In this document: positions 4,128 through 54,628 of the stretch, one piece after another
Layout of the letters: each line of letters begins with the position of its first letter
Numbering within the stretch: the first letter of the stretch is position 1
Assembly (NCBI RefSeq): GCF_022846255.1
Contig: NZ_AP025682.1
DNA from: Escherichia coli
GTDB lineage: Bacteria > Pseudomonadota > Gammaproteobacteria > Enterobacterales > Enterobacteriaceae
Strand: one strand, 5' to 3'
DNA length: 64,000 nucleotides
The notes under the pieces: generated by a model
Seen by the model: only the letters and a program-made list of their open reading frames with translations
What the model was told of the DNA's origin: nothing
Databases searched by the model: none
Translations under genes and position numbers: made by a program

Positions 4128-4128
4128 G

Positions 4129-4242: not shown

Positions 4243-4331
4243 CAGTGGCTGATTTACATTCAAATAGCGGAGAAGCCATAAACCCCTCAAAGCAGCGTAT
4301 AATCAGTATGTTACCAAACTATTTTCTTTAT

Positions 4332-4351: not shown

Positions 4352-4358
4352 AGTAAGC

Positions 4359-4544: not shown

Positions 4545-4600
4545 ATCTGAACTTCCCCTCGGTTAGCATCAGGCTATTCGCGTCTGACGAGAGTAACGCC

Positions 4601-6028: not shown

Positions 6029-6192
6029 TGCTAACAGCCCATCCCATCAGGCTATTTTATTTGTCAGTTCGGCCCCGGGCAGTGCTCGAAATCTTCACGT
6101 ACGACATGTACGCTCCGGTTTCTCCGCGCTGTCCATGTCCAAACTGCCTGCAACAATTACGCCCACTGGGATAGGCTTTAAGTCTGGTGAAT

Positions 6193-8230: not shown

Positions 8231-8254
8231 ATTGGCGTTATGTGTTACGTTTAG

Positions 8255-8629
<375 letters not shown>

Positions 8630-8642
8630 AACGCGTCAAGGG

Positions 8643-8666
8643 TTGCCGGATGTGTCCATCCGGCAA
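8643..8666. terminator. perfect 10-bp inverted repeat between convergent glnB and hmp (putative bidirectional terminator or REP-like hairpin)
   Basis: TTGCCGGATG-tgtc-CATCCGGCAA. Confidence 0.35.
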
Positions 8667-8673
8667 CATCAAA

Positions 8674-9864: not shown

Positions 9865-9883
9865 ATGGTCTTCCTTTTTTTTT

Positions 9884-9915
9884 GCATCTTAATTGATGTA
9901 TCTCAAATGCATCTT
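9884..9915. promoter_or_regulatory. NsrR-type operator in the hmp promoter
   Basis: AT-rich palindrome AAGATGCATTTGAGATACATCAATTAAGATGC (read on the minus strand) 20-50 bp upstream of the hmp start; resembles the NsrR consensus AAGATGyATTT...AAATrCATCTT. Confidence 0.55.
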
Positions 9916-10193
9916 ATAAAAAATAGCCCTGCAATGTAAATGGTTCTTTGGTGTTTTTCAGAAAGAATGTGATGAAGTGAAAAATTTGCATCACAAACCT
10001 GAAAAGAAATCCGTTTCCGGTTGCAAGCTCTTTATTCTCCAAAGCCTTGCGCAGCCTGAAGGTAATCGTTTGCGTAAATTCCTTTGTCAAGACCTGTTAT
10101 CGCACAATGATTCGGTTATACTGTTCGCCGTTGTCCAACAGGACCGCCTATAAAGGCCAAAAATTTTATTGTTAGCTGAGTCAGGAGATGCGG

Positions 10194-22221: not shown

Positions 22222-22317
22222 AACCAATCCCTTTGCAAGATAATGTGATTTAAACGTAATACACACTCTGGCACCTCGCCACGCCCCAGGAGTTGAGATA
22301 TTCGCTAATTGTCCTGG

Positions 22318-23529
<1,212 letters not shown>

Positions 23530-24342
23530 TTAAAGATCCAGCCCAGCCGCTACGTGGCGAATGCCGCGAATCGCTAAACCCGCATCAGCGTTGATCATCA
23601 CACCGCTTAATGCGCGATTATTGCGCCGCGATGCCAACATCACATACGGACCCGTAAAATCCGCCGGTTGCGGGAAAAATTGCAGCGGTAATATGGCGGC
23701 AATTTTCTCCGGCGTCAGAGACTGCATTATCGAGGTTTCACTTTGCCCGAGCGCCTGTGGGCCGCGCAGGTCGCTGGCCATACCACACGGGCCGACGCCA
23801 TTCACCCGCACTTTCGGTGCCAGTTCATAAGCCAGTTGGCGAATAAGTCCGGTTGCGGCATGTTTACTGGCGGTGTACAGCGGGCCACCGCCGCCGGGAT
23901 ACCAGGCGGCATTTGACAGTGTGAAAATCATGCTGCCTTCACTGGCGATTAACGCCGGAGCGCAGGCTTTTGCGCCCAGCAGGTAACCGAGTACGTTGAC
24001 GTTAAACAGCTCGTGGAAGCCGGTTTCGAGCGTCTCTGCGGGAGTATTAACCAGTGAGGCATTGTGATCCCAGATGCCCGCATTGCCGATAAAACAATCC
24101 AGTTTGCCAGAACGAGTCAGGATCTGATCGATCGCGCGTTGATAATCGGTATAACAGGTCACGTTGCCTTCCACCGCCAGAATATGTTCACCAAATCGCT
24201 GACGCAGACTGGCGACTTTCGCCGCCGACAGTTCCAACGTGGCAACCTGCGCGCCTTCTTCGATAAATCGCTCGACCAGCGCCAGGCCTAATCCCGAACC
24301 GCCGCCGGTAATAAAGATGGACTCGTTATGCAGATCGCTCAT
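23530..24342 (-). CDS. hcaB: cis-dihydrodiol dehydrogenase (SDR family)
   Basis: 270 aa short-chain dehydrogenase ([13 protein letters not shown] catalytic motif). Confidence 0.92.
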
Positions 24343-24658
24343 GGCTGCGCCTCCGGTAAGTCGATGAAGATGTCACCACCTTCAACGTGTACTGGATAAG
24401 TGGTTAGCGGATCGGTGGCGGGCAGGCATAATGCTTTCCCCGTTTTCAGGCAAAAACTGGCGGCGTGCAGCGGGCACTCCACCGTGGCGTCATCTTCCAG
24501 ATACCCTTCTGACATCGACGCATTACCATGGCTGCAACGATCGTTAATGGCATAAAACTCGCCGCCTACGTTGAACAGGGCGATGACGGGCGAGGTATCG
24601 ATCCGGAGAGCCTCACCCTCCGGCACATCCGCAACGGGACACGCATAAATTCGATTCA

Positions 24659-24659
<1 letters not shown>
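24339..24659 (-). CDS. hcaC: Rieske-type ferredoxin of the 3-phenylpropionate dioxygenase
   Basis: 106 aa; Rieske ligands CSH...CPLH; 4-nt overlap with hcaB. Confidence 0.92.
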
Positions 24660-26571
<1,912 letters not shown>

Positions 26572-26670
26572 CTATTTTTGTGCCATAAGGATGTTGCTGG
26601 TTGGTTGCTGATATGTGAAATAGTTAATTTCTACCAGCTGAGACGTTTTTTCGATAACAAGGGGAAGGTG

Positions 26671-27561
26671 ATGGAACTACGGCATTTACGCTATTTCGTC
26701 GCAGTGGCGCAGGCACTGAACTTTACCCGTGCGGCGGAAAAACTGCATACCTCACAGCCTTCGTTAAGCAGCCAGATCCGCGATCTTGAAAACTGTGTCG
26801 GTGTTCCGTTACTGGTGAGGGATAAGCGCAAAGTCGCGTTGACGGCGGCGGGAGAATGTTTTCTCCAGGACGCGCTGGCAATCCTCGAACAAGCGGAAAA
26901 TGCCAAATTACGGGCGCGGAAAATTGTTCAGGAAGACAGACAATTAACCATTGGCTTTGTGCCATCGGCGGAAGTGAATTTACTGCCAAAAGTATTACCG
27001 ATGTTTCGTCTCAGACAGCCAGACACCTTAATTGAGCTGGTGAGTTTAATCACCACGGAACAGGAAGAAAAAATTCGCCGTGGTGAACTCGACGTCGGCT
27101 TAATGCGCCATCCCGTTTATAGCCCGGAGATTGATTATCTGGAGCTTTTTGACGAACCATTAGTGGTGGTGTTACCGGTTGATCACCCTTTAGCACATGA
27201 AAAAGAGATCACTGCCGCGCAACTGGATGGCGTGAATTTCGTCAGTACTGATCCAGCGTATTCCGGTTCGCTTGCGCCGATCGTTAAAGCGTGGTTTGCG
27301 CAAGAAAACAGCCAGCCAAATATCGTCCAGGTGGCAACGAATATTCTGGTGACCATGAATCTGGTGGGGATGGGGCTGGGCGTCACTTTGATACCCGGTT
27401 ATATGAATAATTTTAATACCGGCCAGGTGGTATTTCGACCCATTGCCGGAAATGTGCCTGCCATTGCTTTACTGATGGCGTGGAAAAAAGGGGAGATGAA
27501 GCCGGCATTACGCGATTTCATCGCCATTGTGCAGGAACGTTTGGCATGCGTAACGGCATAA
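26671..27561 (+). CDS. hcaR: LysR-type transcriptional activator of the hca operon
   Basis: 296 aa from ATG 26671 (MELRHLRYFVAVAQALNFTRAAEKLHTSQPSLSSQI = LysR HTH); divergent from hcaE. Confidence 0.92.
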   Translation: MELRHLRYFVAVAQALNFTRAAEKLHTSQPSLSSQIRDLENCVGVPLLVRDKRKVALTAAGECFLQDALAILEQAENAKLRARKIVQEDRQLTIGFVPSAEVNLLPKVLPMFRLRQPDTLIELVSLITTEQEEKIRRGELDVGLMRHPVYSPEIDYLELFDEPLVVVLPVDHPLAHEKEITAAQLDGVNFVSTDPAYSGSLAPIVKAWFAQENSQPNIVQVATNILVTMNLVGMGLGVTLIPGYMNNFNTGQVVFRPIAGNVPAIALLMAWKKGEMKPALRDFIAIVQERLACVTA

Positions 27562-27720
27562 TTACGCATTATTTTTGCAACATGCGTCGCGGCTCGCAGT
27601 TTTTTAGTGCTTGTGAACTGGCGTTACAGACATCAGGAAGCAGGCTCGAATATTCTTATTTTTCAACTTGCACCAACATTCGATTAACCCCAGACTAACG
27701 CCTCCTGACGGGAGGGACTC

Positions 27721-28860: not shown

Positions 28861-30132
28861 TTCGAGCATTTTGCGGATCTGCTCCTGTTGATGTGTTGTC
28901 AATGTCAGGTCCGTATAGATCAGCGGTGGTGAAAAGAGCGGTAACGGCATGGTATAAGGCGCAATAATCAGTGCCGCGCCGCGCGGAGCGCCTGTCTGCA
29001 AAAATGCCTTTACCGACATATGTTTAATGTTGAGCGGCAGTAACGTTAGTTCGCGTAGCTGCTGCTCAATCTGCGCTTCTCGCTCGCTATCATTCCCGGT
29101 CAGTAGAATAATCTGTTTCTCATGCAGGTCGTTTTCCTGCATTAGCCAGGCACCAAAAATCACCGCTACCAGACCGCTTTCCTCATCAGAAAGATGGACG
29201 CCGTATTCACTTTCAAATCCGGCCAGCGCCGCGCGGGTGGTGCGCACCAGGCGTGGATACAGGCGGGCGAACTCTTCCGGCAGGGTGTTATCAATACCGA
29301 TGGCAAACAAACTGCGATTTAACGCCTGGGCGAGGTGGGTATAAAGCTGATCGCATAACCCCTGTTCATCATAAAAACGAACATTTCCCAGCTCACGAAA
29401 GTGGTTTACCAGACGTTTGATAGACTGACGCAGTTGTCTGTCCCGCTGATGCGCATCCCGCAGTGGATCGGGAACCCGCAACATGGAAAAGAGTAGAGCC
29501 ATAAACAGTGGCTCATCAGGCGGTACAGGCTGGAGTGCCCGACGCTGCCAGTGGCGTCCAATTTCCTGCGCTACCTGAAATTCAAGGCAGGATTCTGCCC
29601 AGCGACGTTGGAGCGGATTAAACTGAGGCGTAATTCCAGCGTGATGTTGCAACAAACAATATTGCAAATACAGACACAGGAAATGAATATCGCGCGTTTC
29701 AAAGCGTTTTTGCAGCCGTCGGGAGCAGAGATTCACTAACGCTTGTAGATTGGTATCGTCGTAAAAGTTACGCGCAATTCCGCGCCGCTTCAGTTCACTC
29801 TTCAGGGCGGGGGTGAATCGGCTGGTAATAAATGACGGACACAGACGGAAACCACGTCGTAGCCAGTGAAATAAACACAAACGTTGGTTAAGCACTGTAC
29901 CTTCAACCCGGTAGCTGCCGTCATAACCAGTAGTCAGTGTGAGTTGATGATAGCGCAGGATCTCCCGTCCTGTTTCGCTGATATCAAGACTGGCAATATC
30001 ATCATCCACACCATTAAGCTCGCTGAAAGTTGCCGTGGTGGCGGTCAACCCCGGCTGAAAGAGCGTCAGCAAGATCTGGCAGCGGCGCTGGGGAGCCGAA
30101 AGGACAGATGGTGGAGCAAGCGTAGGCATCAT
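28852..30132 (-). CDS. csiE: stationary-phase-inducible protein CsiE
   Basis: 426 aa from the MMPTLAPPSVL start; 3' end overlaps the hcaT 3' end by 9 nt (convergent). Confidence 0.85.
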   Translation of the reverse strand: MMPTLAPPSVLSAPQRRCQILLTLFQPGLTATTATFSELNGVDDDIASLDISETGREILRYHQLTLTTGYDGSYRVEGTVLNQRLCLFHWLRRGFRLCPSFITSRFTPALKSELKRRGIARNFYDDTNLQALVNLCSRRLQKRFETRDIHFLCLYLQYCLLQHHAGITPQFNPLQRRWAESCLEFQVAQEIGRHWQRRALQPVPPDEPLFMALLFSMLRVPDPLRDAHQRDRQLRQSIKRLVNHFRELGNVRFYDEQGLCDQLYTHLAQALNRSLFAIGIDNTLPEEFARLYPRLVRTTRAALAGFESEYGVHLSDEESGLVAVIFGAWLMQENDLHEKQIILLTGNDSEREAQIEQQLRELTLLPLNIKHMSVKAFLQTGAPRGAALIIAPYTMPLPLFSPPLIYTDLTLTTHQQEQIRKMLESA

Positions 30133-30322
30133 CTGTAGATCTCCCATAAGCATAATTGATAAGAATAGCTAAAGTTTGCTCAGGGAAATGGCGAAGGGAA
30201 TGCTAATCATCAGAAATGTTGGCAAGCATCACAGAATTTTTCTCATTTTAAACTGTTCTGACCAGTGGATTAGCATGTCTTAAGGTGGTTTTGTGAATGA
30301 TTATCGTGCTAGTGATCATGGG

Positions 30323-31177
30323 TTAGTTCTGCGGATTCAACGCGCTAAGAATAAAATCCACCATCTGTTCGCGATAAACATCGCCGTGACGATCGGAAAA
30401 AGCATCAATGTGTTCGCCATCCGGGATTAGGATCAACCGTTTTGGTTCTTTTGCCAGGCTATACAACTTTTCACTGTGCTGCCATGGGATAACGTGATCA
30501 GCTTTACCGTGAATGAGTAAAAGCGGGATCGGGCTGACGCTGGCGATGTAATTTTCGCCGCTGTAACTCTCATCAAGTAAGTAGCCACTGCCGGGGATCA
30601 TCTGGTTGGCAATGGTCGCATAAGAGGCAAATGTGGAGTCGAGGATCACCGCACGTATGCCTTCACGATCACCCTGACCAATAACATCCAGAATATTCGC
30701 CCCGCCAATACTCTGCCCGAACAGCACCAGCCGTTGTGGGTTTACATCGCTGCGATGGCGCACCACATTGATGGCACTTTGCGTATCGTCCAGCAATCCG
30801 GCCTGGGACGGTGTGCCTTTTGATTTACCAAACCCGCGATAATCAAACATAAAAACGTTGAAATTACGCTCGGGTAACCAACTGACCAGCGGCCAGTGGG
30901 CGGACATATTTCCGGCATTGCCGTGAGCATGAATGATGGTTGCGATGGCGTTGTCAGCAGGGCCCGTCGAAGAAGGAATAAACCAGCCTTGCAGACGAGT
31001 ACCGTCCTTAGCCGTAAATTCGACGGATTCCGCCGACCAGGGGTCGGGACCGTATATTTTATCGTCAGGATAATAGAAGAAGTTGATGGCGACGCGCGGC
31101 ACTAAATAAACGCAGAAGGCAACAACAAAGAGAATAAACAGAATTTTGAGAACGCGTTTGTTCACTGGCAGCGCCAT
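30323..31177 (-). CDS. yfhR: alpha/beta-hydrolase (S9-type peptidase/esterase family) membrane-anchored protein
   Basis: 284 aa from the internal ATG (MALPVNKRVLKILFILFVVAF TM anchor); nucleophile elbow GQSIGG. Confidence 0.85.
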   Translation of the reverse strand: MALPVNKRVLKILFILFVVAFCVYLVPRVAINFFYYPDDKIYGPDPWSAESVEFTAKDGTRLQGWFIPSSTGPADNAIATIIHAHGNAGNMSAHWPLVSWLPERNFNVFMFDYRGFGKSKGTPSQAGLLDDTQSAINVVRHRSDVNPQRLVLFGQSIGGANILDVIGQGDREGIRAVILDSTFASYATIANQMIPGSGYLLDESYSGENYIASVSPIPLLLIHGKADHVIPWQHSEKLYSLAKEPKRLILIPDGEHIDAFSDRHGDVYREQMVDFILSALNPQN

Positions 31178-31321
31178 AACCTTTCCTTGCGACTTCTTTA
31201 TCATCCATTAATCGGGGAAAGATGGTGGGAGAGTGACGAAAGAAAGTAAAGCGGTGAGGAAGTATTTCGGAATAGCGCCTGAAAGGCGAGGGCGGGTGAG
31301 TGATATCACCCGCCTGAGTCA

Positions 31322-32125
31322 TTAACGCTTCAGAGCGTCGCTTAACTCGTCACGCATGTTCGCCAGCATGGCTTTAACAACGCGCGGGTTACCAGCAACG
31401 ATGTTACCGGTCAGCATATAGTTATGACCACCGGTGAAGTCGCTGACGATGCCGCCTGCTTCACGAACCAGCAGCTCGCCTGCCGCGAAATCCCACGGGC
31501 GCAGACCGATTTCAAAGAAACCGTCAACACGACCCGCAGCGACGTAAGCCAGATCCAGCGCCGCAGAACCGGTACGACGGAAGTCTGCACATTCGTTGAA
31601 CAGTTTGCCGACGATATTGATGTAGGTAGTGGCGTACTGTTTTGCTTTGAACGGGAAGCCGGTCGCCAGAATAGTACCGTCGAGATCGCGAGCGGTGCTG
31701 CCGCGCAGACGGTAGCCGTTCAGCTGTGCGCCCTGACCGCGAGTGGCGGTGAACAGTTCGTTACGCATAGGATCGTATACCACAGCAACTTCGGTGCGGC
31801 CTTTGATACGAACGGCGATAGATACCGCGAAGTGCGGCAGACGTTTGATAAAGTTGGTAGTGCCATCCAGTGGATCGATAACCCATTGAACATCCTGATC
31901 GGTACCTTCAAGTTCACCGCTTTCTTCGGTGATGATGGTGTGCTGTGGGTAAGATTTACGAATCGTGTCGATAATCACCGCTTCGGCAGCTTTATCTACG
32001 TTGGTCACGAAATCGTTACTGCCTTTCTGGCTCGCTTCTACAGCGTCCGGGGTTTCATAGTTTTTGGCAATTAAATTACCCGCCTTGCGCGCTGCGCGCA
32101 CGGCGATGTTCAGCATCGGATGCAT
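31322..32125 (-). CDS. suhB: inositol monophosphatase
   Basis: 267 aa; IMPase motifs WVIDPLDGTTNF and FEIGLRPWDFAAG. Confidence 0.95.
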   Translation of the reverse strand: MHPMLNIAVRAARKAGNLIAKNYETPDAVEASQKGSNDFVTNVDKAAEAVIIDTIRKSYPQHTIITEESGELEGTDQDVQWVIDPLDGTTNFIKRLPHFAVSIAVRIKGRTEVAVVYDPMRNELFTATRGQGAQLNGYRLRGSTARDLDGTILATGFPFKAKQYATTYINIVGKLFNECADFRRTGSAALDLAYVAAGRVDGFFEIGLRPWDFAAGELLVREAGGIVSDFTGGHNYMLTGNIVAGNPRVVKAMLANMRDELSDALKR

Positions 32126-32243
32126 CGGTCTCTCTCACTGGATGTTAAAGAACGGGAAAACGGCGCAGAGTATAGCAGCGAGATCGGCATCTGTCTTCGT
32201 TTTATGATAAGATGCGTGAATAATCTTTAGATGAAGAAAGACA

Positions 32244-32984
32244 ATGCTGCAAAATATTCGAATTGTGCTGGTGGAGACGTCACACACCGGCAATATGGGT
32301 TCTGTTGCCCGTGCCATGAAAACAATGGGATTAACCAATCTGTGGCTGGTTAATCCACTAGTGAAACCTGACTCCCAGGCGATTGCCCTGGCAGCAGGAG
32401 CCAGCGATGTGATTGGTAATGCTCACATCGTCGATACGCTCGACGAAGCGTTAGCCGGTTGTAGTCTGGTGGTGGGCACCAGCGCTCGCTCCCGCACGCT
32501 GCCGTGGCCGATGCTCGACCCGCGCGAATGCGGTCTGAAAAGCGTCGCTGAAGCGGCAAATACCCCGGTGGCGCTGGTGTTTGGTCGCGAGCGCGTCGGC
32601 TTGACCAATGAAGAGTTGCAGAAATGCCATTATCATGTCGCGATTGCGGCTAACCCGGAATACAGTTCGCTGAACCTGGCGATGGCGGTTCAGGTTATTG
32701 CCTATGAAGTGCGCATGGCCTGGCTGGCAACTCAGGAAAATGGCGAGCAGGTCGAGCATGAAGAGACGCCGTATCCGCTGGTCGATGATCTGGAGCGTTT
32801 TTATGGTCATCTGGAGCAAACGCTGCTGGCAACCGGTTTTATCCGTGAAAACCATCCGGGGCAGGTGATGAATAAATTGCGCCGTCTGTTTACCCGTGCA
32901 CGCCCGGAAAGCCAGGAATTGAATATCCTGCGCGGGATTCTGGCTTCTATTGAGCAGCAGAATAAAGGTAACAAGGCCGAATAA
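32244..32984 (+). CDS. trmJ: tRNA (cytidine/uridine-2'-O-)-methyltransferase TrmJ (SpoU family)
   Basis: 246 aa SPOUT methyltransferase ([25 protein letters not shown]). Confidence 0.93.
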
Positions 32985-32991
32985 CAGTGGT

Positions 32992-33078
32992 TGCCTGATG
33001 CGATGCTTAACGCGTCTTATCAGGCCTGTAAGTGCACGGAATCCCAGGTCGGATAAGGTGTTCACACCGCATCCGACA
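32992..33078. repeat. pair of REP-like palindromes (BIME-like) downstream of trmJ
   Basis: GCCTGATGCG...CGTCTTATCAGGC and GTCGGATAAGGTGTTCACACCGCATCCGAC. Confidence 0.5.
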
Positions 33079-33139
33079 ACAGGTACAAACGCCACGATAA
33101 AAAATGGCACTGAAGGTTAAATACCCGACTAAATCAGTC

Positions 33140-33215
33140 AAGTAAATAGTTGACCAATTTACTCGGGAATGTCAGACTTGACCCTGCTATGCAATACCCC
33201 CACTTTTACAATAAA
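33140..33215 (+). promoter_or_regulatory. iscR promoter region with IscR autoregulatory sites
   Basis: ATAGTTGACCAATTTACTCGGGAATGTCAGACTTGACCC: two TTGACC elements within AT-rich dyad-like sequence 40-110 bp upstream of iscR, consistent with known type-1 IscR operators. Confidence 0.5.
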
Positions 33216-33253
33216 AAACCCCGGGCAGGGGCGAGTTTGAGGTGAAGTAAGAC

Positions 33254-33742
33254 ATGAGACTGACATCTAAAGGGCGCTATGCCGTGACCGCAATGCTTGA
33301 CGTTGCGCTCAACTCTGAAGCGGGCCCGGTACCGTTGGCTGATATTTCCGAACGTCAGGGAATTTCCCTTTCTTATCTGGAACAACTGTTTTCCCGTCTG
33401 CGTAAAAATGGTCTGGTTTCCAGCGTACGTGGACCAGGCGGTGGTTATCTGTTAGGCAAAGATGCCAGCAGCATCGCCGTTGGCGAAGTGATTAGCGCCG
33501 TTGACGAATCTGTAGATGCCACCCGTTGTCAGGGTAAAGGCGGCTGCCAGGGCGGCGATAAATGCCTGACCCACGCGCTGTGGCGTGATTTGAGCGACCG
33601 TCTTACCGGTTTTCTCAATAACATTACTTTAGGCGAACTGGTTAATAACCAGGAAGTGCTGGATGTGTCTGGTCGTCAGCATACTCACGACGCGCCACGC
33701 ACCCGCACACAAGACGCGATCGACGTTAAGTTACGCGCTTAA
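33254..33742 (+). CDS. iscR: Fe-S cluster regulator IscR (Rrf2 family)
   Basis: 162 aa; Rrf2 HTH and cluster-ligand cysteines ([13 protein letters not shown]). Confidence 0.96.
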
Positions 33743-33853
33743 TAAAAAGAATTCAGAATCAGGCCGGAGTGCCAAACACTCCGTAAACACGGTCGTACAT
33801 CCAGCCGGTAGCCTGGTTCCTTGCATTGAGTGATGTACGGAGTTTATAGAGCA

Positions 33854-35068
33854 ATGAAATTACCGATTTATCTCGACTACTCCGCAACCACGCCGGTGGA
33901 CCCGCGTGTTGCCGAGAAAATGATGCAGTTTATGACGATGGACGGAACCTTTGGTAACCCGGCCTCCCGTTCTCACCGTTTCGGCTGGCAGGCTGAAGAA
34001 GCGGTAGATATCGCCCGTAATCAGATTGCCGATCTGGTCGGCGCTGATCCGCGTGAAATCGTCTTTACCTCTGGTGCAACCGAATCTGACAACCTGGCGA
34101 TCAAAGGTGCAGCCAACTTTTATCAGAAAAAAGGCAAGCACATCATCACCAGTAAAACCGAACATAAAGCGGTACTGGATACCTGCCGTCAGCTGGAGCG
34201 CGAAGGTTTTGAAGTCACTTACCTGGCACCGCAGCGTAATGGCATTATCGACCTGAAAGAACTCGAAGCAGCGATGCGTGACGACACCATCCTTGTTTCC
34301 ATCATGCACGTAAATAACGAAATCGGCGTGGTGCAGGATATCGCGGCTATCGGCGAAATGTGCCGTGCTCGTGGCATTATCTATCACGTTGATGCAACCC
34401 AGAGCGTGGGCAAACTGCCTATCGACCTGAGCCAGTTGAAAGTTGACCTGATGTCTTTCTCCGGTCACAAAATCTATGGCCCGAAAGGTATTGGTGCGCT
34501 GTATGTGCGTCGTAAACCGCGCGTACGTATCGAAGCACAAATGCATGGCGGCGGTCACGAGCGCGGTATGCGTTCCGGCACTCTGCCTGTTCACCAGATC
34601 GTCGGTATGGGCGAAGCCTATCGCATCGCAAAAGAAGAGATGGCGACCGAGATGGAACGTCTGCGCGGCCTGCGTAACCGTCTGTGGAACGGCATCAAAG
34701 ATATCGAAGAAGTTTACCTGAACGGTGACCTGGAACACGGTGCGCCGAACATTCTCAACGTCAGCTTCAACTACGTTGAAGGTGAGTCGCTGATTATGGC
34801 GCTGAAAGACCTCGCGGTTTCTTCAGGTTCCGCCTGTACGTCAGCAAGCCTCGAACCGTCCTACGTGCTGCGCGCGCTGGGGCTGAACGACGAGCTGGCA
34901 CATAGCTCTATCCGTTTCTCTTTAGGTCGTTTTACTACTGAAGAAGAGATCGACTACACCATCGAGTTAGTTCGTAAATCCATCGGTCGTCTGCGTGACC
35001 TTTCTCCGCTGTGGGAAATGTACAAGCAGGGCGTGGATCTGAACAGCATCGAATGGGCTCATCATTAA
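33854..35068 (+). CDS. iscS: cysteine desulfurase IscS
   Basis: 404 aa from ATG 33854 ([15 protein letters not shown]); PLP lysine in [12 protein letters not shown]; catalytic Cys in SSGSACTS. Confidence 0.96.
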
Positions 35069-35095
35069 TCGGTATCGGAATCAGGAGAATTTATA

Positions 35096-35482
35096 ATGGC
35101 TTACAGCGAAAAAGTTATCGACCATTACGAGAATCCGCGTAACGTGGGTTCCTTTGACAACAACGACGAGAACGTCGGCAGCGGCATGGTGGGTGCACCG
35201 GCCTGTGGCGACGTGATGAAGTTGCAGATTAAAGTCAACGATGAAGGTATCATTGAAGACGCGCGTTTTAAAACTTACGGCTGCGGTTCCGCTATCGCTT
35301 CCAGCTCCCTGGTCACCGAATGGGTGAAAGGGAAGTCTCTCGACGAAGCACAGGCGATCAAAAACACCGATATTGCTGAAGAACTTGAACTGCCGCCGGT
35401 GAAAATTCACTGTTCTATTCTGGCAGAAGACGCGATCAAAGCCGCCATTGCGGACTATAAAAGCAAACGTGAAGCAAAATAA
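35096..35482 (+). CDS. iscU: Fe-S cluster scaffold IscU
   Basis: 128 aa; conserved Cys ligands (GAPACGDVM, TYGCGSAIAS, HCSILAEDAI) and the LPPVK motif. Confidence 0.97.
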   Translation: MAYSEKVIDHYENPRNVGSFDNNDENVGSGMVGAPACGDVMKLQIKVNDEGIIEDARFKTYGCGSAIASSSLVTEWVKGKSLDEAQAIKNTDIAEELELPPVKIHCSILAEDAIKAAIADYKSKREAK

Positions 35483-35498
35483 GAGTTGAGGTTTGGTT

Positions 35499-35822
35499 AT
35501 GTCGATTACACTGAGCGACAGTGCAGCAGCGCGAGTAAATACCTTTCTGGCTAACCGCGGTAAAGGGTTTGGCCTGCGTCTGGGCGTGAGAACCTCCGGG
35601 TGTTCAGGTATGGCTTATGTACTGGAATTTGTTGACGAACCGACGCCGGAAGACATCGTGTTTGAAGACAAAGGCGTGAAAGTCGTGGTCGATGGCAAAA
35701 GCCTGCAATTTCTGGACGGTACGCAGCTGGACTTCGTCAAAGAAGGCCTTAACGAAGGGTTTAAATTCACCAACCCGAACGTCAAAGATGAGTGTGGTTG
35801 CGGCGAAAGCTTCCACGTTTGA
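35499..35822 (+). CDS. iscA: A-type Fe-S carrier IscA
   Basis: 107 aa; C-terminal CGCGESF motif. Confidence 0.95.
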
Positions 35823-35917
35823 TGCGCATACCGATAACCCCACCGTGGTCGCCTGCGCGTGGGGTTTGTTTTACCTGATTCGCCGTTATCGCGGCGGATC
35901 GCAGCCCTGAGAATGTT

Positions 35918-36433
35918 ATGGATTACTTCACCCTCTTTGGCTTGCCTGCCCGTTATCAACTCGATACCCAGGCGCTGAGCCTGCGTTTTCAGGATCTACA
36001 ACGTCAGTATCATCCTGATAAATTCGCCAGCGGAAGCCAGGCGGAACAACTCGCCGCCGTACAGCAATCCGCGACCATTAACCAGGCCTGGCAAACGCTG
36101 CGTCATCCGTTAATGCGCGCGGAATATTTGCTTTCTTTGCACGGTTTTGATCTCGCCAGCGAGCAGCATACTGTGCGCGACACCGCGTTCCTGATGGAAC
36201 AGCTGGAACTGCGCGAAGAACTGGACGAGATCGAACAGGCGAAAGATGAAGCGCGGCTGGAAAGCTTTATCAAACGTGTGAAAAAGATGTTTGATACCCG
36301 CCATCAGTTGATGGTTGAACAGTTAGACAACGAGACGTGGGACGCGGCGGCGGATACCGTGCGTAAGCTGCGTTTTCTCGATAAACTGCGGAGCAGTGCC
36401 GAACAACTCGAAGAAAAACTGCTCGATTTTTAA
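35918..36433 (+). CDS. hscB: J-domain co-chaperone HscB
   Basis: 171 aa; J-domain HPD motif (QRQYHPDKF). Confidence 0.95.
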
Positions 36434-36449
36434 TTTCTGGAAGCTAAAC

Positions 36450-38300
36450 ATGGCCTTATTACAAATTAGTGAACCTGGTTTGAGTGCTGCGCCGCATCAG
36501 CGTCGCCTGGCGGCCGGTATTGACCTGGGCACAACCAACTCGCTGGTGGCAACAGTGCGCAGCGGTCAGGCCGAAACGTTAGCTGACCATGAAGGCCGTC
36601 ACCTGCTGCCATCTGTTGTTCACTATCAACAGCAAGGGCATTCGGTGGGTTATGACGCGCGTACTAATGCAGCGCTCGATACCGCCAACACAATTAGTTC
36701 TGTTAAACGCCTGATGGGGCGCTCGCTGGCTGATATCCAGCAACGCTATCCGCATCTGCCTTATCAATTCCAGGCCAGCGAAAACGGCCTTCCGATGATT
36801 GAAACGGCGGCGGGGCTGCTGAACCCGGTGCGCGTTTCTGCGGACATCCTCAAAGCACTGGCGGCGCGGGCAACTGAAGCCCTGGCAGGCGAGCTGGATG
36901 GTGTCGTTATCACCGTTCCGGCGTACTTTGACGATGCCCAGCGTCAGGGCACCAAAGACGCGGCGCGTCTGGCGGGCCTTCACGTCCTGCGCTTACTTAA
37001 CGAACCGACCGCTGCGGCTATCGCCTACGGGCTGGATTCCGGTCAGGAAGGCGTGATCGCTGTTTATGACCTCGGCGGCGGGACGTTTGATATTTCCATT
37101 CTGCGCTTAAGTCGCGGCGTGTTTGAAGTGCTGGCAACCGGCGGTGATTCCGCGCTCGGCGGCGATGATTTCGACCATTTGCTGGCGGATTATATTCGCG
37201 AGCAGGCGGGCATTCCTGATCGTAGCGATAACCGCGTTCAGCGTGAACTGCTGGATGCCGCCATTGCAGCCAAAATCGCGCTGAGTGATGCGGACTCCGT
37301 GACCGTTAACGTTGCGGGCTGGCAGGGCGAAATCAGCCGTGAACAATTCAATGAACTGATCGCGCCACTGGTAAAACGAACCTTACTGGCTTGTCGTCGC
37401 GCGCTGAAAGACGCGGGTGTAGAAGCTGATGAAGTGCTGGAAGTGGTGATGGTGGGCGGTTCTACTCGCGTGCCGCTGGTGCGTGAACGGGTAGGCGAAT
37501 TTTTCGGTCGTCCACCGCTGACTTCCATCGACCCGGATAAAGTCGTCGCTATTGGCGCGGCGATTCAGGCGGATATTCTGGTGGGTAACAAGCCAGACAG
37601 CGAAATGCTGCTGCTTGATGTGATCCCACTGTCGCTGGGCCTCGAAACGATGGGCGGCCTGGTGGAGAAAGTGATTCCGCGTAATACCACGATTCCGGTG
37701 GCTCGCGCCCAGGATTTCACCACCTTTAAAGATGGTCAGACGGCGATGTCTATCCATGTAATGCAGGGTGAGCGTGAACTGGTGCAGGACTGCCGCTCGC
37801 TGGCGCGTTTTGCGCTGCGTGGTATTCCGGCGCTACCGGCTGGCGGTGCGCATATTCGCGTGACGTTCCAGGTCGATGCCGACGGTCTTTTGAGCGTGAC
37901 GGCGATGGAGAAATCCACCGGCGTTGAGGCATCTATTCAGGTCAAACCGTCTTATGGTCTGACCGACAGCGAAATCGCCTCGATGATCAAAGACTCAATG
38001 AGCTATGCCGAGCAGGACGTAAAAGCCCGAATGCTGGCAGAACAAAAAGTAGAAGCGGCGCGTGTGCTGGAAAGTCTGCACGGTGCGCTGGCTGCTGATG
38101 CCGCGCTGTTAAGCGCCGCAGAACGTCAGGATATCGACGATGCTGCCGCTCACCTGAGTGAAGTGGCGCAGGGCGATGATGTTGACGCCATCGAACAAGC
38201 GATTAAAAACGTAGACAAACAAACCCAGGATTTCGCCGCTCGCCGCATGGACCAGTCGGTTCGCCGTGCGCTGAAAGGCCATTCCGTGGACGAGGTTTAA
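36450..38300 (+). CDS. hscA: Hsp70-type chaperone HscA
   Basis: 616 aa from ATG 36450 ([10 protein letters not shown]); DnaK-like ATPase motifs ([17 protein letters not shown]). Confidence 0.96.
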
Positions 38301-38301
38301 T

Positions 38302-38637
38302 ATGCCAAAGATTGTTATTTTGCCTCATCAGGATCTCTGCCCTGATGGCGCTGTTCTGGAAGCGAATAGTGGTGAAACCATTCTCGACGTTGCGCTGCGT
38401 AACGGTATCGAGATTGAACACGCCTGTGAAAAATCCTGTGCTTGCACCACCTGCCACTGCATCGTTCGCGAAGGTTTTGACTCGCTGCCGGAAAGCTCAG
38501 AGCAGGAAGACGACATGCTGGACAAAGCCTGGGGACTGGAGCCGGAAAGCCGTTTAAGCTGCCAGGCGCGCGTTACTGACGAAGATTTAGTGGTCGAAAT
38601 CCCGCGTTACACTATCAACCATGCGCGTGAGCATTAA
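38302..38637 (+). CDS. fdx: [2Fe-2S] ferredoxin (adrenodoxin-type)
   Basis: 111 aa; Cys ligands [12 protein letters not shown]...C. Confidence 0.95.
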
Positions 38638-38648
38638 CAGAGGTTACT

Positions 38649-38849
38649 ATGGGACTTAAGTGGACCGATAGCCGCGAAATTGGCGAAGCACTGTACGATG
38701 CGTATCCCGATCTTGATCCGAAAAGGGTTCGATTCACCGATATGCATCAGTGGATTTGCGATCTGGAAGATTTCGACGACGACCCGCAGGCATCCAACGA
38801 AAAAATCCTCGAAGCGATTTTGTTGGTCTGGCTGGACGAAGCCGAGTAA
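38649..38849 (+). CDS. iscX: Fe-S assembly protein IscX
   Basis: 66-aa acidic protein [24 protein letters not shown] at the end of the isc operon. Confidence 0.93.
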
Positions 38850-38907
38850 ATGAACGGGCTGCCTGGGGGTAGCCCGTTTTGCTGTTAAACGAATAAGGAT
38901 AACTAAA

Positions 38908-40191
38908 ATGACAGAAGCGATGAAAATTACCCTCTCTACCCAACCTGCCGATGCGCGCTGGGGAGAAAAAGCAACTTACAGCATTAATAATGATGGCATT
39001 ACCCTGCATTTGAACGGGGCAGACGATCTGGGGCTGATCCAGCGTGCGGCGCGCAAGATTGATGGTCTGGGCATCAAGCATGTTCAGCTAAGCGGAGAAG
39101 GCTGGGATGCGGATCGCTGCTGGGCATTCTGGCAAGGTTACAAAGCCCCGAAAGGCACGCGTAAAGTGGAGTGGCCGGATCTGGACGATGTCCAGCGCCA
39201 GGAACTGGATAACCGCCTGATGATCATCGACTGGGTGCGTGACACCATTAACGCACCGGCGGAAGAGCTGGGGCCATCGCAACTGGCACAGCGTGCTGTT
39301 GATCTGATCAGCAATGTCGCGGGCGATCGTGTGACTTACCGGATCACCAAAGGCGAAGATCTGCGTGATCAAGGTTATATGGGACTGCACACGGTCGGAC
39401 GCGGTTCAGAACGTTCTCCGGTATTGCTGGCGCTGGATTACAACCCAACTGGCGATAAAGAAGCGCCAGTGTACGCGTGCCTGGTTGGTAAAGGCATCAC
39501 TTTTGACTCCGGCGGCTACAGCATCAAACAGACCGCATTTATGGACTCGATGAAGTCGGACATGGGCGGCGCGGCAACGGTTACCGGGGCGCTGGCGTTT
39601 GCCATTACGCGCGGACTGAATAAGCGCGTGAAGCTGTTCCTCTGCTGTGCGGATAACCTGATCAGCGGCAACGCGTTCAAACTGGGCGATATTATTACCT
39701 ATCGCAACGGTAAAAAAGTCGAAGTGATGAACACCGATGCCGAAGGGCGTCTGGTGCTGGCCGATGGCCTGATTGATGCCAGTGCGCAGAAACCGGAACT
39801 GATCATTGATGCGGCGACCCTCACCGGGGCGGCGAAAACTGCGCTGGGTAATGATTATCACGCGTTGTTCAGTTTTGACGATGCGCTTGCCGGTCGTTTG
39901 CTGGCGAGTGCCTCACAAGAGAACGAACCGTTCTGGCGTCTGCCGCTTGCGGAATTCCACCGCAGCCAGCTGCCGTCTAACTTTGCCGAACTGAACAATA
40001 CCGGAAGCGCGGCGTATCCGGCAGGTGCAAGTACGGCTGCGGGCTTCCTGTCGCACTTTGTTGAGAACTATCAGCAAGGCTGGCTGCATATCGACTGCTC
40101 GGCGACTTACCGTAAAGCGCCGGTTGAACAGTGGTCTGCGGGTGCTACGGGACTTGGTGTGCGCACGATTGCTAATCTGTTAACGGCGTAA
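38908..40191 (+). CDS. pepB: aminopeptidase B (M17 family)
   Basis: 427 aa; M17 motif NTDAEGRL. Confidence 0.95.
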
Positions 40192-40332: not shown

Positions 40333-41109
40333 ATGTCCGAAACAAAAAACGAACTTGAAGACCTGCTGGAAAAAGCAGCAACCGAACCGGCTCACCGCCC
40401 GGCCTTTTTCCGTACTCTACTGGAATCCACCGTCTGGGTGCCTGGTACGGCGGCGCAGGGCGAGGCAGTAGTTGAAGATAGCGCGCTTGATTTACAGCAC
40501 TGGGAAAAAGAAGACGGCACCAGCGTCATTCCTTTTTTTACCTCGTTAGAAGCACTTCAACAGGCGGTTGAAGACGAACAGGCATTTGTCGTAATGCCCG
40601 TTCGCACATTGTTTGAGATGACCCTTGGCGAAACGCTCTTCCTTAATGCCAAACTGCCAACCGGTAAAGAGTTTATGCCGCGTGAAATCAGTTTGTTGAT
40701 TGGTGAAGAAGGGAATCCGCTGAGTAGCCAGGAAGTACTGGAAGGCGGTGAATCGCTGATATTATCGGAAGTCGCAGAGCTGCCAGCACAAATGATTGAT
40801 TCACTCACCACCTTATTTAAAACCATTAAGCCGGTGAAGCGTGCTTTTATTTGTTCAATTAAAGAGAACGAAGAGGCACAGCCTAATTTACTTATTGGCA
40901 TTGAAGCCGATGGTGATATCGAAGAAATTATTCAGGTGGCGGGAAGTGTAGCGACCGATACATTACCTGGCGATGAGCCCATCGATATTTGTCAGGTGAA
41001 AAAAGGGGAAAAAGGAATTAGCCACTTTATTACCGAACATATTGTGCCATTCTATGAACGTCGCTGGGGTGGTTTTTTGCGTGACTTTAAACAGAGTCGG
41101 ATAATCTAA
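40333..41109 (+). CDS. sseB: SseB (enhanced serine sensitivity protein B)
   Basis: 258 aa from ATG 40333 (MSETKNELEDLLEKAATEPAHRPAFF). Confidence 0.9.
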   Translation: MSETKNELEDLLEKAATEPAHRPAFFRTLLESTVWVPGTAAQGEAVVEDSALDLQHWEKEDGTSVIPFFTSLEALQQAVEDEQAFVVMPVRTLFEMTLGETLFLNAKLPTGKEFMPREISLLIGEEGNPLSSQEVLEGGESLILSEVAELPAQMIDSLTTLFKTIKPVKRAFICSIKENEEAQPNLLIGIEADGDIEEIIQVAGSVATDTLPGDEPIDICQVKKGEKGISHFITEHIVPFYERRWGGFLRDFKQSRII

Positions 41110-41420
41110 AATATGCCGCCCCAAAGGGCGGCATTCGGGCTTACTTGCTGCTCTGAAGTTTGTTAACCACCAGTAAATTGTCGCCGGAGAGACTCCGGTT
41201 ATTATTTACCTCGGTTAACAGCGCACCAGAAACAATAAGTACGATACAGAAGCACCGTATCTTCATTGTGCGGTCCATGCGAAGACCGCATCACGACAGC
41301 ACCACTGGCGATATTGCCGCGATAGCAAGCGCTGTGAAACACCTGCATTTACGGCCATGGAACATCCTTTCCTTAAGCCAGCGCCCGTTTGCGAGACGGC
41401 GGAAAGGGCCGGTGTCGATA
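41105..41420 (-). ncRNA. ryfA: RyfA-like transcript (about 310 nt; probably a small-protein mRNA, TimP/RyfA family)
   Basis: Minus-strand unit bounded by a 9-bp GC-rich hairpin (41113-41134) plus U-run at its 3' end and promoter-like elements near 41420-41461; position between sseB and sseA and size match enterobacterial ryfA; the 5' end is approximate. Confidence 0.55.
41141..41278 (-). CDS. candidate small hydrophobic peptide (TimP-like putative type I toxin), 45 aa, or 41 aa from the second ATG
   Basis: Minus-strand ORF MDRTMKIRCFCIVLIVSGALLTEVNNNRSLSGDNLLVVNKLQSSK inside the RyfA-like transcript; hydrophobic N-terminal segment then polar tail; weak Shine-Dalgarno; below the 60-aa cutoff of the supplied ORF track. 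Confidence 0.35.
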   Translation of the reverse strand: MDRTMKIRCFCIVLIVSGALLTEVNNNRSLSGDNLLVVNKLQSSK

Positions 41421-41489: not shown

Positions 41490-41592
41490 GCTGTGAAGCA
41501 CCTGCGTTGCTCATGCAACACAAGCCAATCTGCTGGAAAGGCCGCGAACCAAACCAGCAACAAATAACCGCCTGATTTTGGCGGTTTTTTGT
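41490..41592 (+). ncRNA. candidate small RNA unit 1 (about 100 nt), divergent from the RyfA-like transcript; putative antitoxin (TimR/RyfB-like)
   Basis: TTGACA (41455-41460) - 17 bp - GAGTAT (41478-41483) promoter, then about 100 nt ending in AACCGCC-tgatttt-GGCGGTT hairpin plus TTTTTTGTTG; the 5' end (41490-41505, GCTGTGAAGCACCTGC) is complementary to the RyfA-like RNA; no ORF. Confidence 0.45.
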
Positions 41593-41767
41593 TGTTTAAA
41601 GAAAGTGAAATTACACGTTTAAGTAATATCTTTTACCAGTTAGTATTTTAATATTAAGCGGGATTTGTTTATATTTGTCTGAATTCGGACTGATAAGCCA
41701 AATGAATTCAAAATCTATCCTTTTTTATCTACTTGACATCGTTGATGCATAAAGCGAGTATTGAGTA

Positions 41768-53399: not shown

Positions 53400-54518
53400 A
53401 TGCATAACCAGGCTCCAATTCAACGTAGAAAATCAACACGTATTTACGTTGGGAATGTGCCGATTGGCGATGGTGCTCCCATCGCCGTACAGTCCATGAC
53501 CAATACGCGTACGACAGACGTCGAAGCAACGGTCAATCAAATCAAGGCGCTGGAACGTGTTGGCGCTGATATCGTCCGTGTCTCCGTACCGACGATGGAC
53601 GCGGCAGAAGCGTTCAAACTCATCAAACAGCAGGTTAACGTGCCGCTGGTGGCTGACATCCACTTCGACTATCGCATTGCGCTGAAAGTAGCGGAATACG
53701 GCGTCGATTGTCTGCGTATTAACCCTGGCAATATCGGTAATGAAGAGCGTATTCGCATGGTGGTTGACTGTGCGCGCGATAAAAACATTCCGATCCGTAT
53801 TGGCGTTAATGCCGGATCGTTGGAAAAAGATCTGCAAGAAAAGTATGGCGAACCGACGCCGCAGGCGTTGCTGGAATCTGCCATGCGTCATGTTGATCAT
53901 CTCGATCGCCTGAACTTCGATCAGTTCAAAGTCAGCGTGAAAGCGTCTGACGTCTTCCTCGCTGTTGAGTCTTATCGTTTGCTGGCAAAACAAATCGATC
54001 AGCCGCTGCATCTGGGGATCACCGAAGCCGGTGGTGCGCGTAGCGGGGCAGTAAAATCCGCTATTGGTTTAGGTCTGCTGCTGTCTGAAGGCATCGGCGA
54101 CACGCTGCGCGTATCGCTGGCGGCCGATCCGGTCGAAGAGATCAAAGTCGGTTTCGATATTTTGAAATCGCTGCGTATCCGTTCGCGCGGGATCAACTTC
54201 ATCGCCTGCCCGACCTGTTCGCGTCAGGAATTTGATGTTATCGGTACGGTTAACGCGCTGGAGCAACGCCTGGAAGATATCATCACTCCGATGGACGTTT
54301 CGATTATCGGCTGCGTGGTGAATGGCCCTGGTGAGGCGCTGGTTTCTACACTCGGCGTCACTGGCGGCAACAAGAAAAGCGGCCTCTATGAAGATGGCGT
54401 GCGCAAAGACCGTCTGGACAACAACGATATGATCGATCAGCTGGAAGCGCGCATTCGTGCGAAAGCCAGTCAGCTGGACGAAGCGCGTCGAATTGACGTT
54501 CAGCAGGTTGAAAAATAA
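53400..54518 (+). CDS. ispG: 4-hydroxy-3-methylbut-2-enyl diphosphate synthase (IspG/GcpE)
   Basis: 372 aa; [4Fe-4S] ligands in [12 protein letters not shown] and GCVVNGPGE. Confidence 0.96.
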
Positions 54519-54628
54519 TAACGTGATGGGAAGCGCCTCGCTTCCCGTGTATGATTGAACCCGCATGGCTCCCGAAACATTGAGGGAAGCGTTGAGGGTT
54601 CATTTTTATATTCAGAAAGAGAATAAAC

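Follow-up and report, generated by a model that had tools for sequence, protein, structure and literature searches.

An intact isc operon preceded by two adjacent matches to the IscR Type-1 operator in an Escherichia coli genome

The 64-kb window (the whole stretch of E. coli DNA analysed in this study) contains eight uninterrupted open reading frames on the plus strand at 33254-38849, which are arranged in the canonical order iscR-iscS-iscU-iscA-hscB-hscA-fdx-iscX according to the open reading frame map. The features of this locus are listed in Table 1. The true ATG codons of iscS, iscA and hscA are located within longer mechanical open reading frames. Neither an internal stop nor a frameshift is seen in the eight genes. 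All eight proteins match NCBIfam models end to end, with scores above the curated cut-offs. The best model for HscA is a subfamily model, and all others are equivalogs. The ligand and catalytic residues of the proteins were checked with established residue numbers. The residues E43, C92, C98, C104 and H107 of IscR, H104, D180, Q183, K206 and C328 of IscS, C37, D39, C63, H105 and C106 of IscU, C35, C99 and C101 of IscA, and C42, C48, C51 and C87 of Fdx are all found, as are the LPPVK motif at position 99 of IscU and the HPD motif at positions 32-34 of HscB. The cluster ligands of IscR are also given by PMC6599224. These results agree with the first-pass annotation, in which all isc genes had been described as full length with preserved motifs, and the end of the interval reported there (38849) coincides with the iscX stop codon.

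Table 1. Features of the isc locus and of its upstream region (positions in the 64-kb window; promoter positions are relative to the probable transcription start)
Feature	Position	Strand	Description
IscR Type-1 operator site A	33121-33145		ATACCCGACTAAATCAGTCAAGTAA; −65 to −41
IscR Type-1 operator site B	33146-33170		ATAGTTGACCAATTTACTCGGGAAT; −40 to −16; overlaps the −35 hexamer
First TTGACC	33150-33155	+	left half-site of site B; probable −35 hexamer of PiscR, −36 to −31
−10-like hexamer CAGACT	33173-33178	+	putative assignment; −13 to −8; 17-bp spacer from the −35 hexamer
Second TTGACC	33178-33183	+	−8 to −3; outside both Type-1 matches
Transcription start and iscR 5′ leader	33186-33253	+	probable start at G 33186; leader of 68 nt
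iscR	33254-33742	+	[2Fe-2S] Rrf2-family regulator, 162 aa; NF008110 (IscR equivalog), 344.7 bits (cut-off 275); identical to K-12
iscRS, 'iscR stability element'	33743-33852	+	structured iscR-iscS spacer RNA; Rfam RF01517
iscS	33854-35068	+	cysteine desulfurase, 404 aa; NF010611, 817 bits (cut-off 548); identical to K-12
iscU	35096-35482	+	scaffold protein, 128 aa; TIGR01999, 237.9 bits (cut-off 192.4); identical to K-12
iscA	35499-35822	+	A-type carrier, 107 aa; NF007049, 231.8 bits (cut-off 181); identical to K-12
hscB	35918-36433	+	J-type co-chaperone, 171 aa; NF003449, 291.1 bits (cut-off 189); identical to K-12
hscA	36450-38300	+	Hsp70-type chaperone, 616 aa; NF003520, 1087.8 bits (cut-off 620); V561D compared with K-12
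fdx	38302-38637	+	ISC [2Fe-2S] ferredoxin, 111 aa; TIGR02007, 209 bits (cut-off 132.1); A30V compared with K-12
iscX	38649-38849	+	66 aa; TIGR03412, 110 bits (cut-off 40.4); T26R compared with K-12
Terminator-like hairpin	38852-38886	+	directly 3′ of iscX; GAACGGGCUGCC-UGGG-GGUAGCCCGUUU, then UGCUGUU

The isc locus of E. coli K-12 MG1655 (b2531-b2524) has the same gene order, the same gene lengths and the same internal spacers. Five proteins of the operon are the same as in K-12, and each of the other three differs by one residue, which is located outside the ligand residues in all three cases (Table 1). At the nucleotide level, 73 silent or near-silent differences from K-12 are distributed across the eight isc genes. 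The outer spacers differ in size between the two strains. The trmJ-iscR spacer contains one 91-bp REP-pair unit in the present strain and three in K-12, and the iscX-pepB spacer is 58 bp in the present strain and 177 bp in K-12. The outer spacers of strain ATCC 11775 (phylogroup B2) are equal in length to those of the present strain (269 and 58 bp), and its iscR, iscS, iscU and iscA genes are nucleotide-identical. Divergence from ATCC 11775 jumps from hscB on, with 30 differences in hscA and 50 differences in pepB. The exact sequence of HscA, which is named HSCA_ECOSM, occurs commonly in E. coli (at least 1000 contigs), that of Fdx is shared with ATCC 11775, and that of IscX is found on 6 contigs only.

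The DNA that flanks the operon is unusually divergent, such that the best complete E. coli genome is at most 98.4% identical over 8-31 kb and at most 98.1% identical over 36.3-40.2 kb of the window. This divergence might suggest that the isc locus is intact in looks only and is functionally decayed or a diverged paralogue, as might occur in a host-restricted lineage. However, the genes lack frameshifts and internal stops, the substitutions in the three proteins that differ from K-12 leave the ligand residues untouched, and the locus is present in a single copy that is syntenic with suhB-trmJ and pepB-sseB. Decay of the locus or its conversion into a pseudogene is refuted by the NCBIfam cut-offs, the identity to K-12 and the ligand residues, which all hold, and its probability is negligible.

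The spacer between iscR and iscS contains the iscRS element, which is absent from the first-pass annotation and belongs to the isc system. This spacer matches the Rfam model RF01517 at full length (1-110 of 110) with 135.1 bits, as compared with a gathering score of 40, and the match is located where it is expected, in the iscR-iscS interval, without a notable difference from the family. Three substitutions distinguish the spacer from that of K-12. They appear to keep the pairing as judged by reading of the fold, in such a way that the U17-A74 pair is changed to a U-G pair and a hairpin tip gains a G-C pair. The role of the iscRS element and the control by RyhB are described in PMC12533949. 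The interaction energy calculated for whole RyhB and the iscR-iscS spacer is −57.5 kcal/mol, and 25% of the background slices are as good. When nucleotides 31-70 of RyhB are scanned along the operon with intramolecular structure ignored, the iscS start region is not among the top eight matches. The top match of the same scan is located inside hscA at 37425-37474, with −36.3 kcal/mol as compared with a mean of −16.4 (sd 4.5). At the other end of the operon, the 71-nt region 38840-38910 that contains the hairpin following iscX has a folding energy of −25.6 kcal/mol (z −3.89), which is not reached by any of 200 shuffled sequences. This hairpin is not among the matches of a simple terminator scan. 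It is terminator-like in sequence and probably functions as such.

Type-1 operators were searched for as a 25-bp imperfect palindrome with the consensus ATASYYGACTRWWWYAGTCRRSTAT (PMC6599224, PMC3899308). Site A, with 1 mismatch to this consensus, ranks first among the matches in the 64-kb window, and site B, with 3 mismatches, ranks second. The next best match in the window has 6 mismatches, and Type-1 matches are not found in 100 shuffled sequences. The main claim of the first-pass annotation, that the isc operon is intact and is preceded by putative sites of IscR autoregulation, had been made dependent on the presence of an IscR motif upstream of iscR, and the detection of two adjacent Type-1 matches at this position by the consensus scan bears this claim out. 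Sites A and B are both identical to those of K-12, and together they span −65 to −16, at or over the core promoter, when the start position is taken from K-12. The positions of the two boxes, −65/−41 and −40/−16, result from setting +1 at 33186. The footprint coordinates in E. coli are presumably the same, as corroborated only by this geometry.

According to PMC11572966, there are two IscR sites in the Pisc promoter. In K-12, the sequence of which is identical, [2Fe-2S]-IscR is known to bind preferentially and to cause repression (PMC12594620, PMC11572966), suggesting by homology that IscR binds to sites A and B and represses the promoter in the present strain as well. A literature search with the exact sequences of the operator sites finds no paper. 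The best match to the Type-2 IscR motif in the region 33000-33300 has 8 mismatches out of 26 and is located at the 5′-leader hairpin at 33212-33240. It is rejected as a Type-2 site, because it is no better than the matches at about 200 other positions of the window.

The 155-bp region up to the iscR ATG is identical to that of K-12, including the IscR boxes, the promoter hexamers and the leader, and of 5424 complete E. coli genomes, 5420 carry the region 33110-33256 with an identity of at least 99%. By analogy with K-12, transcription in the present strain probably starts at 33186. According to PMC11572966, nucleotide 98 of the transcript, counted from its start, falls at the end of codon 10, which gives a leader length of 68 nt. 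The small RNAs FnrS and OxyS target the iscR 5′ leader of K-12, to which the leader of the present strain is identical in sequence. The fold of the region 33186-33290 is not more stable than those of shuffled sequences (z +1.69). The geometry of the promoter suggests that the first TTGACC is the −35 hexamer. The −10-like hexamer CAGACT matches at 3 of the 6 positions, which is too weak for a simple promoter scan. The 14 promoters that were aligned all share GTCAGAC without variation, and the last T of CAGACT is absent only in Pluralibacter. A generic promoter scan does not pick up PiscR, because its −10 hexamer is weak, and gives two unrelated matches inside genes, fewer than in shuffled sequences.

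The first-pass annotation had considered a pair of TTGACC elements in an AT-rich context to be consistent with Type-1 operators. The AT content of the region 33100-33253 is 57%, as compared with 48% for the window. If the two hexamers were the cores of both Type-1 operators, these operators would be located at around 33146-33170 and 33174-33198. TTGACC and the Type-1 half-site YYGACT agree at 5 of the 6 positions, the copies at 33150 and 33178 form the only pair on the same strand within 40 bp in the window, and the first of them is truly a half-site of site B. However, the window contains 16 copies of TTGACC on the plus strand and 14 on the minus strand, and the pairing alone is weak evidence, because roughly 0.16 such pairs are expected by chance. 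None of the best ten Type-1 matches in 33000-33300, the tenth of which has 10 mismatches, overlaps with the second TTGACC. The frame that places this hexamer on the half-site positions has 11 mismatches by hand count, a number that is equalled or bettered at thousands of positions in the window. In other Enterobacterales, the second TTGACC is replaced by TTGATC, TTATCC, TTGGCC, TTGCCC or TTGCGC, while both of its flanks are conserved. A far better second operator is available upstream in the form of site A, which has half-sites of CCGACT and AGTCAA and does not contain TTGACC. The second TTGACC thus fails the test for a Type-1 operator both in its match to the consensus and in its conservation across species, and nothing in the sequence marks it as an operator. 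It is highly improbable that the two hexamers are the cores of both operators. The first-pass proposal is correct for the first hexamer, as a half-site of site B, but not for the second, which is located outside both sites; the real second operator is site A. The annotation is corrected accordingly: the 25-bp boxes at 33121-33170, rather than two TTGACC hexamers, constitute the operators, and the regulatory region begins upstream of the reported interval, the start of which (33140) cuts through site A, 19 bp downstream of the beginning of this site.

The second TTGACC could instead be a functional element that is specific to the lineage. It might belong to site C, or it might serve as a −35 hexamer that is paired with TACAAT at 33207-33212 in a secondary promoter. 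PMC6599224 mentions for the E. coli iscR regulatory region a site C that is minor and non-conserved, the second TTGACC is essentially fixed in E. coli, as is evident from the near-invariance of 33110-33256, and TACAAT is a good −10-like hexamer downstream of it. However, this invariance covers the whole 147 bp and does not single out the second TTGACC. In addition, the spacing of 23 bp between TTGACC and TACAAT is too long for a sigma-70 promoter, and the generic promoter scan finds no promoter at these hexamers. A functional element of either kind is therefore quite unlikely. Giel (2013) is said to have found that site C is dispensable for repression. It is very unlikely that the second TTGACC is a lineage-specific element in the form of the core of site C, which is poorly characterized, or of a start-site-proximal contact. 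If it were such an element, it would tune isc autoregulation in Escherichia differently from its relatives.

The arrangement of sites A and B is not restricted to E. coli. Among 52 loci from other genera, 48 have iscR 64-109 nt downstream of the site-B core, although the conservation of site B in this set is partly circular, given that a site-B pattern served to retrieve the loci. An adjoining A-like Type-1 palindrome with at most 7 mismatches is found in 47 of these 52 loci, and the site A box is located outside the search pattern. In PiscR of Pseudomonas aeruginosa PAO1, too, two Type-1 boxes of 25 bp adjoin each other just upstream of the start, where site B overlies the promoter, and both boxes are located inside a region protected from DNase I. 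Site B of the present strain shares 20 of 25 letters with P. aeruginosa site B, ATAGTTGACCTAATTACTCGGATAA, which is located at −42 to −18 in this protected region (PMC6599224). The mapped P. aeruginosa sites (−67/−43 and −42/−18) parallel the E. coli sites (−65/−41 and −40/−16). The sequence of site A is poorly conserved and has 7 mismatches to the consensus in P. aeruginosa PA7. Binding of IscR is sequential or cooperative in Pseudomonas, whereas it is independent in E. coli (PMC6599224).

The locus is almost certainly a canonical E. coli iscRSUA-hscBA-fdx-iscX operon with IscR feedback and small-RNA control, and no sequence features that contradict this assignment are seen. IscS provides the sulfur, which it takes from cysteine, IscU serves as the scaffold for building the cluster, and Fdx supplies electrons. 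Release of the cluster by HscB and HscA proceeds via the LPPVK motif in IscU. IscA is a cluster carrier, and IscX modulates IscS. The identity or near-identity of the eight proteins to those of K-12 suggests that they assemble Fe-S clusters in vivo. Transcription would start from 33186 by means of the −35 hexamer TTGACC and the weak −10 hexamer CAGACT. When clusters are ample, IscR would acquire a [2Fe-2S] cluster and bind to the adjacent sites A and B, the latter of which covers the −35 hexamer. IscR bound to these sites would block RNA polymerase, and the resulting negative feedback would report the demand for Fe-S clusters. FnrS and OxyS would act upon the iscR 5′ leader, and RyhB would cause the iscSUA part of the mRNA to be lost, whereas the iscR part would be protected by the structured iscR-iscS spacer. 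This small-RNA control is likely to operate in the present strain, considering its homology to K-12 and the literature.

The isc operon and self-repression by IscR at this locus are already known and ordinary, and the isc/IscR feedback loop is among the best-studied regulatory circuits of E. coli. Every circuit-defining element of the present isc copy is the version of the model strain.

The whole window was scanned with the published Type-1 IscR consensus ATASYYGACTRWWWYAGTCRRSTAT (PMC6599224, PMC3899308). The results are summarized in the table. Exactly two matches, sites A and B, are detected, and these 25-bp boxes lie side by side upstream of iscR. Because they are the only matches (one and three mismatches), the third-best position in the whole window has six mismatches, and no match arises in any of 100 shuffled sequences, the possibility that no IscR motif is present upstream of iscR fails decisively, and the autoregulatory sites proposed by the first-pass annotation find their counterpart in two adjoining Type-1 motifs. 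When the K-12 start given by a 68-nt iscR leader (PMC11572966) is carried over, transcription in the strain of the window would begin at 33186. The AT-rich context ascribed to this region is moderate, with 57% AT in the upstream region versus 48% in the window. A Type-2 IscR motif scan finds nothing, and a generic promoter scan does not pick up PiscR. Sites A and B were reportedly footprinted at -65/-41 and -40/-16 by Giel et al. in 2006. Agreement of the box positions with these E. coli footprints is supported by the geometry and by analogy with the sites mapped in P. aeruginosa at -67/-43 and -42/-18 (PMC6599224).

Positions of the isc genes, control elements and neighboring features in the window (+1, K-12 start carried over)
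Feature	Position	Strand	Relative to +1	Remark
Site A	33121-33145		-65 to -41	ATACCCGACTAAATCAGTCAAGTAA; 1 mismatch to Type-1 consensus
Site B	33146-33170		-40 to -16	ATAGTTGACCAATTTACTCGGGAAT; 3 mismatches to Type-1 consensus
First TTGACC	33150-33155		-36 to -31	putative -35 hexamer
CAGACT	33173-33178		-13 to -8	putative weak -10, 17-bp spacer
Second TTGACC	33178-33183		-8 to -3	
Leader hairpin	33219-33231			CCCCGGGCAGGGG
iscR	33254-33742	+		
iscRS element	33743-33852			Rfam RF01517
iscS	33854-35068	+		
iscU	35096-35482	+		
iscA	35499-35822	+		
hscB	35918-36433	+		
hscA	36450-38300	+		
RyhB duplex in hscA	37425-37474			predicted
fdx	38302-38637	+		
iscX	38649-38849	+		
Downstream hairpin	38852-38886			plausible terminator
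REP-like unit	32985-33100			trmJ-iscR spacer
GlmY	4359-4506	+		Rfam gathering level
ryfA	41108-41412	-		Rfam gathering level
IS128	41548-41724	-		Rfam gathering level
sroE	54518-54609	+		Rfam gathering level

Two TTGACC hexamers had been taken as the operator pair. Nowhere else in the window do two copies lie within 40 bp of each other on one strand, but this pairing alone is weak evidence, because the hexamer is as frequent as expected (16 copies on the + strand and 14 on the - strand of the 64 kb). The first TTGACC is the left half-site of site B (right half, ACTCGG) and probably also the -35 hexamer, and this double role would be how IscR binding occludes RNA polymerase. The second TTGACC is contained in no Type-1 match, and the frames overlapping it are absent from the ten best positions of 33000-33300, which stop at 10 mismatches; when it is placed on the half-site positions, 11 mismatches to the consensus are counted by hand. 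In an alignment of 14 species, GTCAGAC is invariant, and the positions of the second TTGACC are occupied by TTGATC, TTATCC, TTGGCC, TTGCCC, TTGGTC or TTGCGC; TTATCC is the Salmonella form. Because the hexamer varies in this alignment, there is no sign of constraint on it outside Escherichia, and therefore the picture of paired TTGACC operators is not supported; its first member stands as a half-site of site B, but its second member is unconserved and lies outside every Type-1 match. A 'minor, non-conserved site C' of E. coli is mentioned in PMC6599224, and the Escherichia-specific TTGACC might be a functional lineage-specific element, such as part of this site, but this is very improbable. The real operator pair is site A and site B, and site A begins 19 bp upstream of the start coordinate assigned to the locus by the first-pass annotation.

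The site-B core ATAGTTGACCWWWTTACTCGG was scanned in one genome per species, and 52 loci are retrieved, site B itself being the search pattern. These loci are from Escherichia albertii, Salmonella, Klebsiella, Raoultella, Enterobacter, Buttiauxella, Pantoea, Pseudomonas, Alcanivorax, Thiobacillus and others. At 48 of the 52 loci, the start of an iscR homologue follows the site-B box by 64-109 nt, and a Raoultella locus (L046), whose end cuts off the sequence past the box, is outside these 48. At a Thiobacillus locus (L051), a site-B-like box (2825-2849) precedes a cysE-like ORF, which is followed by a full isc operon in the order iscR-iscS-iscU-iscA-hscB-hscA-fdx-iscX (3696-9983). No isc genes are detected at two other loci bearing the 21-bp core, L014 (6601-6625, another Thiobacillus contig) and L023 (3504-3528, a contig labelled Chloroherpeton). 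At 47 of the 52 loci, the 25 bp directly 5' of the site-B box, which are outside the search pattern, make up a Type-1-like palindrome with seven or fewer mismatches; only 10 sites across the window reach this threshold.

The chromosome segment has the E. coli-type order suhB-trmJ-isc-pepB-sseB, and its eight co-oriented isc ORFs correspond one-to-one with the annotated genes of K-12 and ATCC 11775. The mechanical ORF starts of iscS, iscA and hscA are upstream GTG or TTG codons, and ATG starts, which give the lengths of the annotated genes, were adopted. None of the eight genes contains an internal stop, and all eight proteins match their NCBIfam models end to end and over the curated cut-offs (IscR, 344.7 bits versus 275; IscS, 817 versus 548; HscA, 1087.8 versus 620; IscX, 110 versus 40.4). 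All residues checked are kept: Glu43, Cys92, Cys98, Cys104 and His107 of IscR; His104, Asp180, Gln183, Lys206 and Cys328 of IscS; Cys37, Asp39, Cys63, His105, Cys106 and the LPPVK motif of IscU; Cys35, Cys99 and Cys101 of IscA; the HPD motif of HscB; and Cys42, Cys48, Cys51 and Cys87 of Fdx. The ORFs, the NCBIfam scores, the identity to K-12 and the ligand and catalytic residues all agree that the isc operon is intact, as had been claimed.

The 155 bp preceding the iscR ATG (33099-33253) are identical in the window, K-12 MG1655 and ATCC 11775, and the first upstream difference is one base in the length of an A-run. Of 5424 complete E. coli genomes, 5420 share the 147-bp region 33110-33256 at 99% identity or more. 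The protein sequences of IscR, IscS, IscU, IscA and HscB match those of K-12 exactly, whereas HscA, Fdx and IscX carry the conservative-looking single-residue variants V561D, A30V and T26R, respectively; the other coding differences are synonymous, and the seven intra-operon spacers are equal in length. The variant form of HscA is frequently encountered in E. coli. T26R distinguishes IscX from that of both K-12 and ATCC 11775, and this exact IscX sequence is present on only 6 contigs in a collection of 15 billion proteins; identical copies of HscA, Fdx and PepB occur on about 1000 or more contigs each. Upstream of the operators, a 91-bp REP-pair unit, an inverted pair of REP-like sequences, is present in one copy in the window versus three tandem copies in K-12, and the trmJ-iscR spacer is 269 bp versus 451 bp. 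The iscX-pepB spacer (38850-38907) is 58 bp versus 177 bp in K-12. Both spacers are equal in length to those of ATCC 11775. The differences from K-12 leave the circuit untouched.

The region 30000-36000 differs from ATCC 11775 by 0-4 nucleotides per kb, with iscRSUA nucleotide-identical, whereas the flanking kilobases differ by 10-68 per kb, a pattern that points to mosaic ancestry. None of 5426 complete E. coli genomes exceeds an identity of 98.4% over 8-31 kb, 98.1% over 36.3-40.2 kb or 96.4% over 40.2-64 kb; the source lineage is thus poorly represented among complete genomes. The ATCC 11775 region, which aligns on either side, lacks a counterpart of a stretch of approximately 5.3 kb (22300-27630), and the matching DNA in other E. 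coli is annotated with hca (3-phenylpropionate dioxygenase) genes. The known small RNAs GlmY, ryfA, IS128 and sroE are detected as expected for the region.

At the RNA level, the iscR-iscS spacer, on which the first-pass annotation does not comment, contains a full-length 'iscR stability element' (135.1 bits versus a gathering score of 40). Its three substitutions relative to K-12 appear to keep pairing, with U17-A74 replaced by U-G and one G-C pair gained at a hairpin tip. The iscSUA portion of the transcript is lost through the action of RyhB, the iscR portion accumulates owing to 'strong secondary structure' of the spacer, and hscBA-fdx-iscX is treated as a further RyhB-controlled transcript (PMC12533949). 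Unconstrained RyhB duplex predictions do not recover the known iscS target. The strongest duplex of RyhB nt 31-70 among the 60-nt slices of the operon, with intramolecular structure ignored, lies inside hscA (-36.3 kcal/mol versus a mean of -16.4, sd 4.5) and includes a perfect CUGGAAG/CUUCCAG match. The K-12 5' leader is a target of FnrS, which represses at the ribosome-binding site, and of OxyS, which activates (PMC11572966); the iscR leader of the window is identical, and small-RNA control would probably operate in its strain as well. Taken as a whole, this leader shows no unusual stability. It contains a small hairpin immediately 5' of the ribosome-binding site, which on the opposite strand scores like a terminator. 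A hairpin with other stem letters, such as UCCG...CGGA in Pantoea and Mixta, occupies this position in other Enterobacterales. Past the end of iscX, a stable hairpin is followed by a U-rich tail (-25.6 kcal/mol for a 71-nt stretch, z -3.89), and this predicted structure is plausibly the operon terminator.

Every defining feature examined is present; only the second TTGACC fails as a Type-1 site. The locus is almost certainly a canonical isc operon under IscR feedback; it is the already known isc system of K-12 itself in another E. coli lineage. Transcription from PiscR would yield a polycistronic isc mRNA. In the ISC pathway, clusters are assembled by IscS, IscU and Fdx and released by HscB and HscA, with IscA and IscX in assisting roles. 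IscR is itself a client of this pathway, and [2Fe-2S]-IscR would bind the Type-1 boxes A and B and thereby silence the promoter. Under increased Fe-S demand or upon oxidation of the cluster, IscR binding would become weaker and the operon would be derepressed (PMC12594620).
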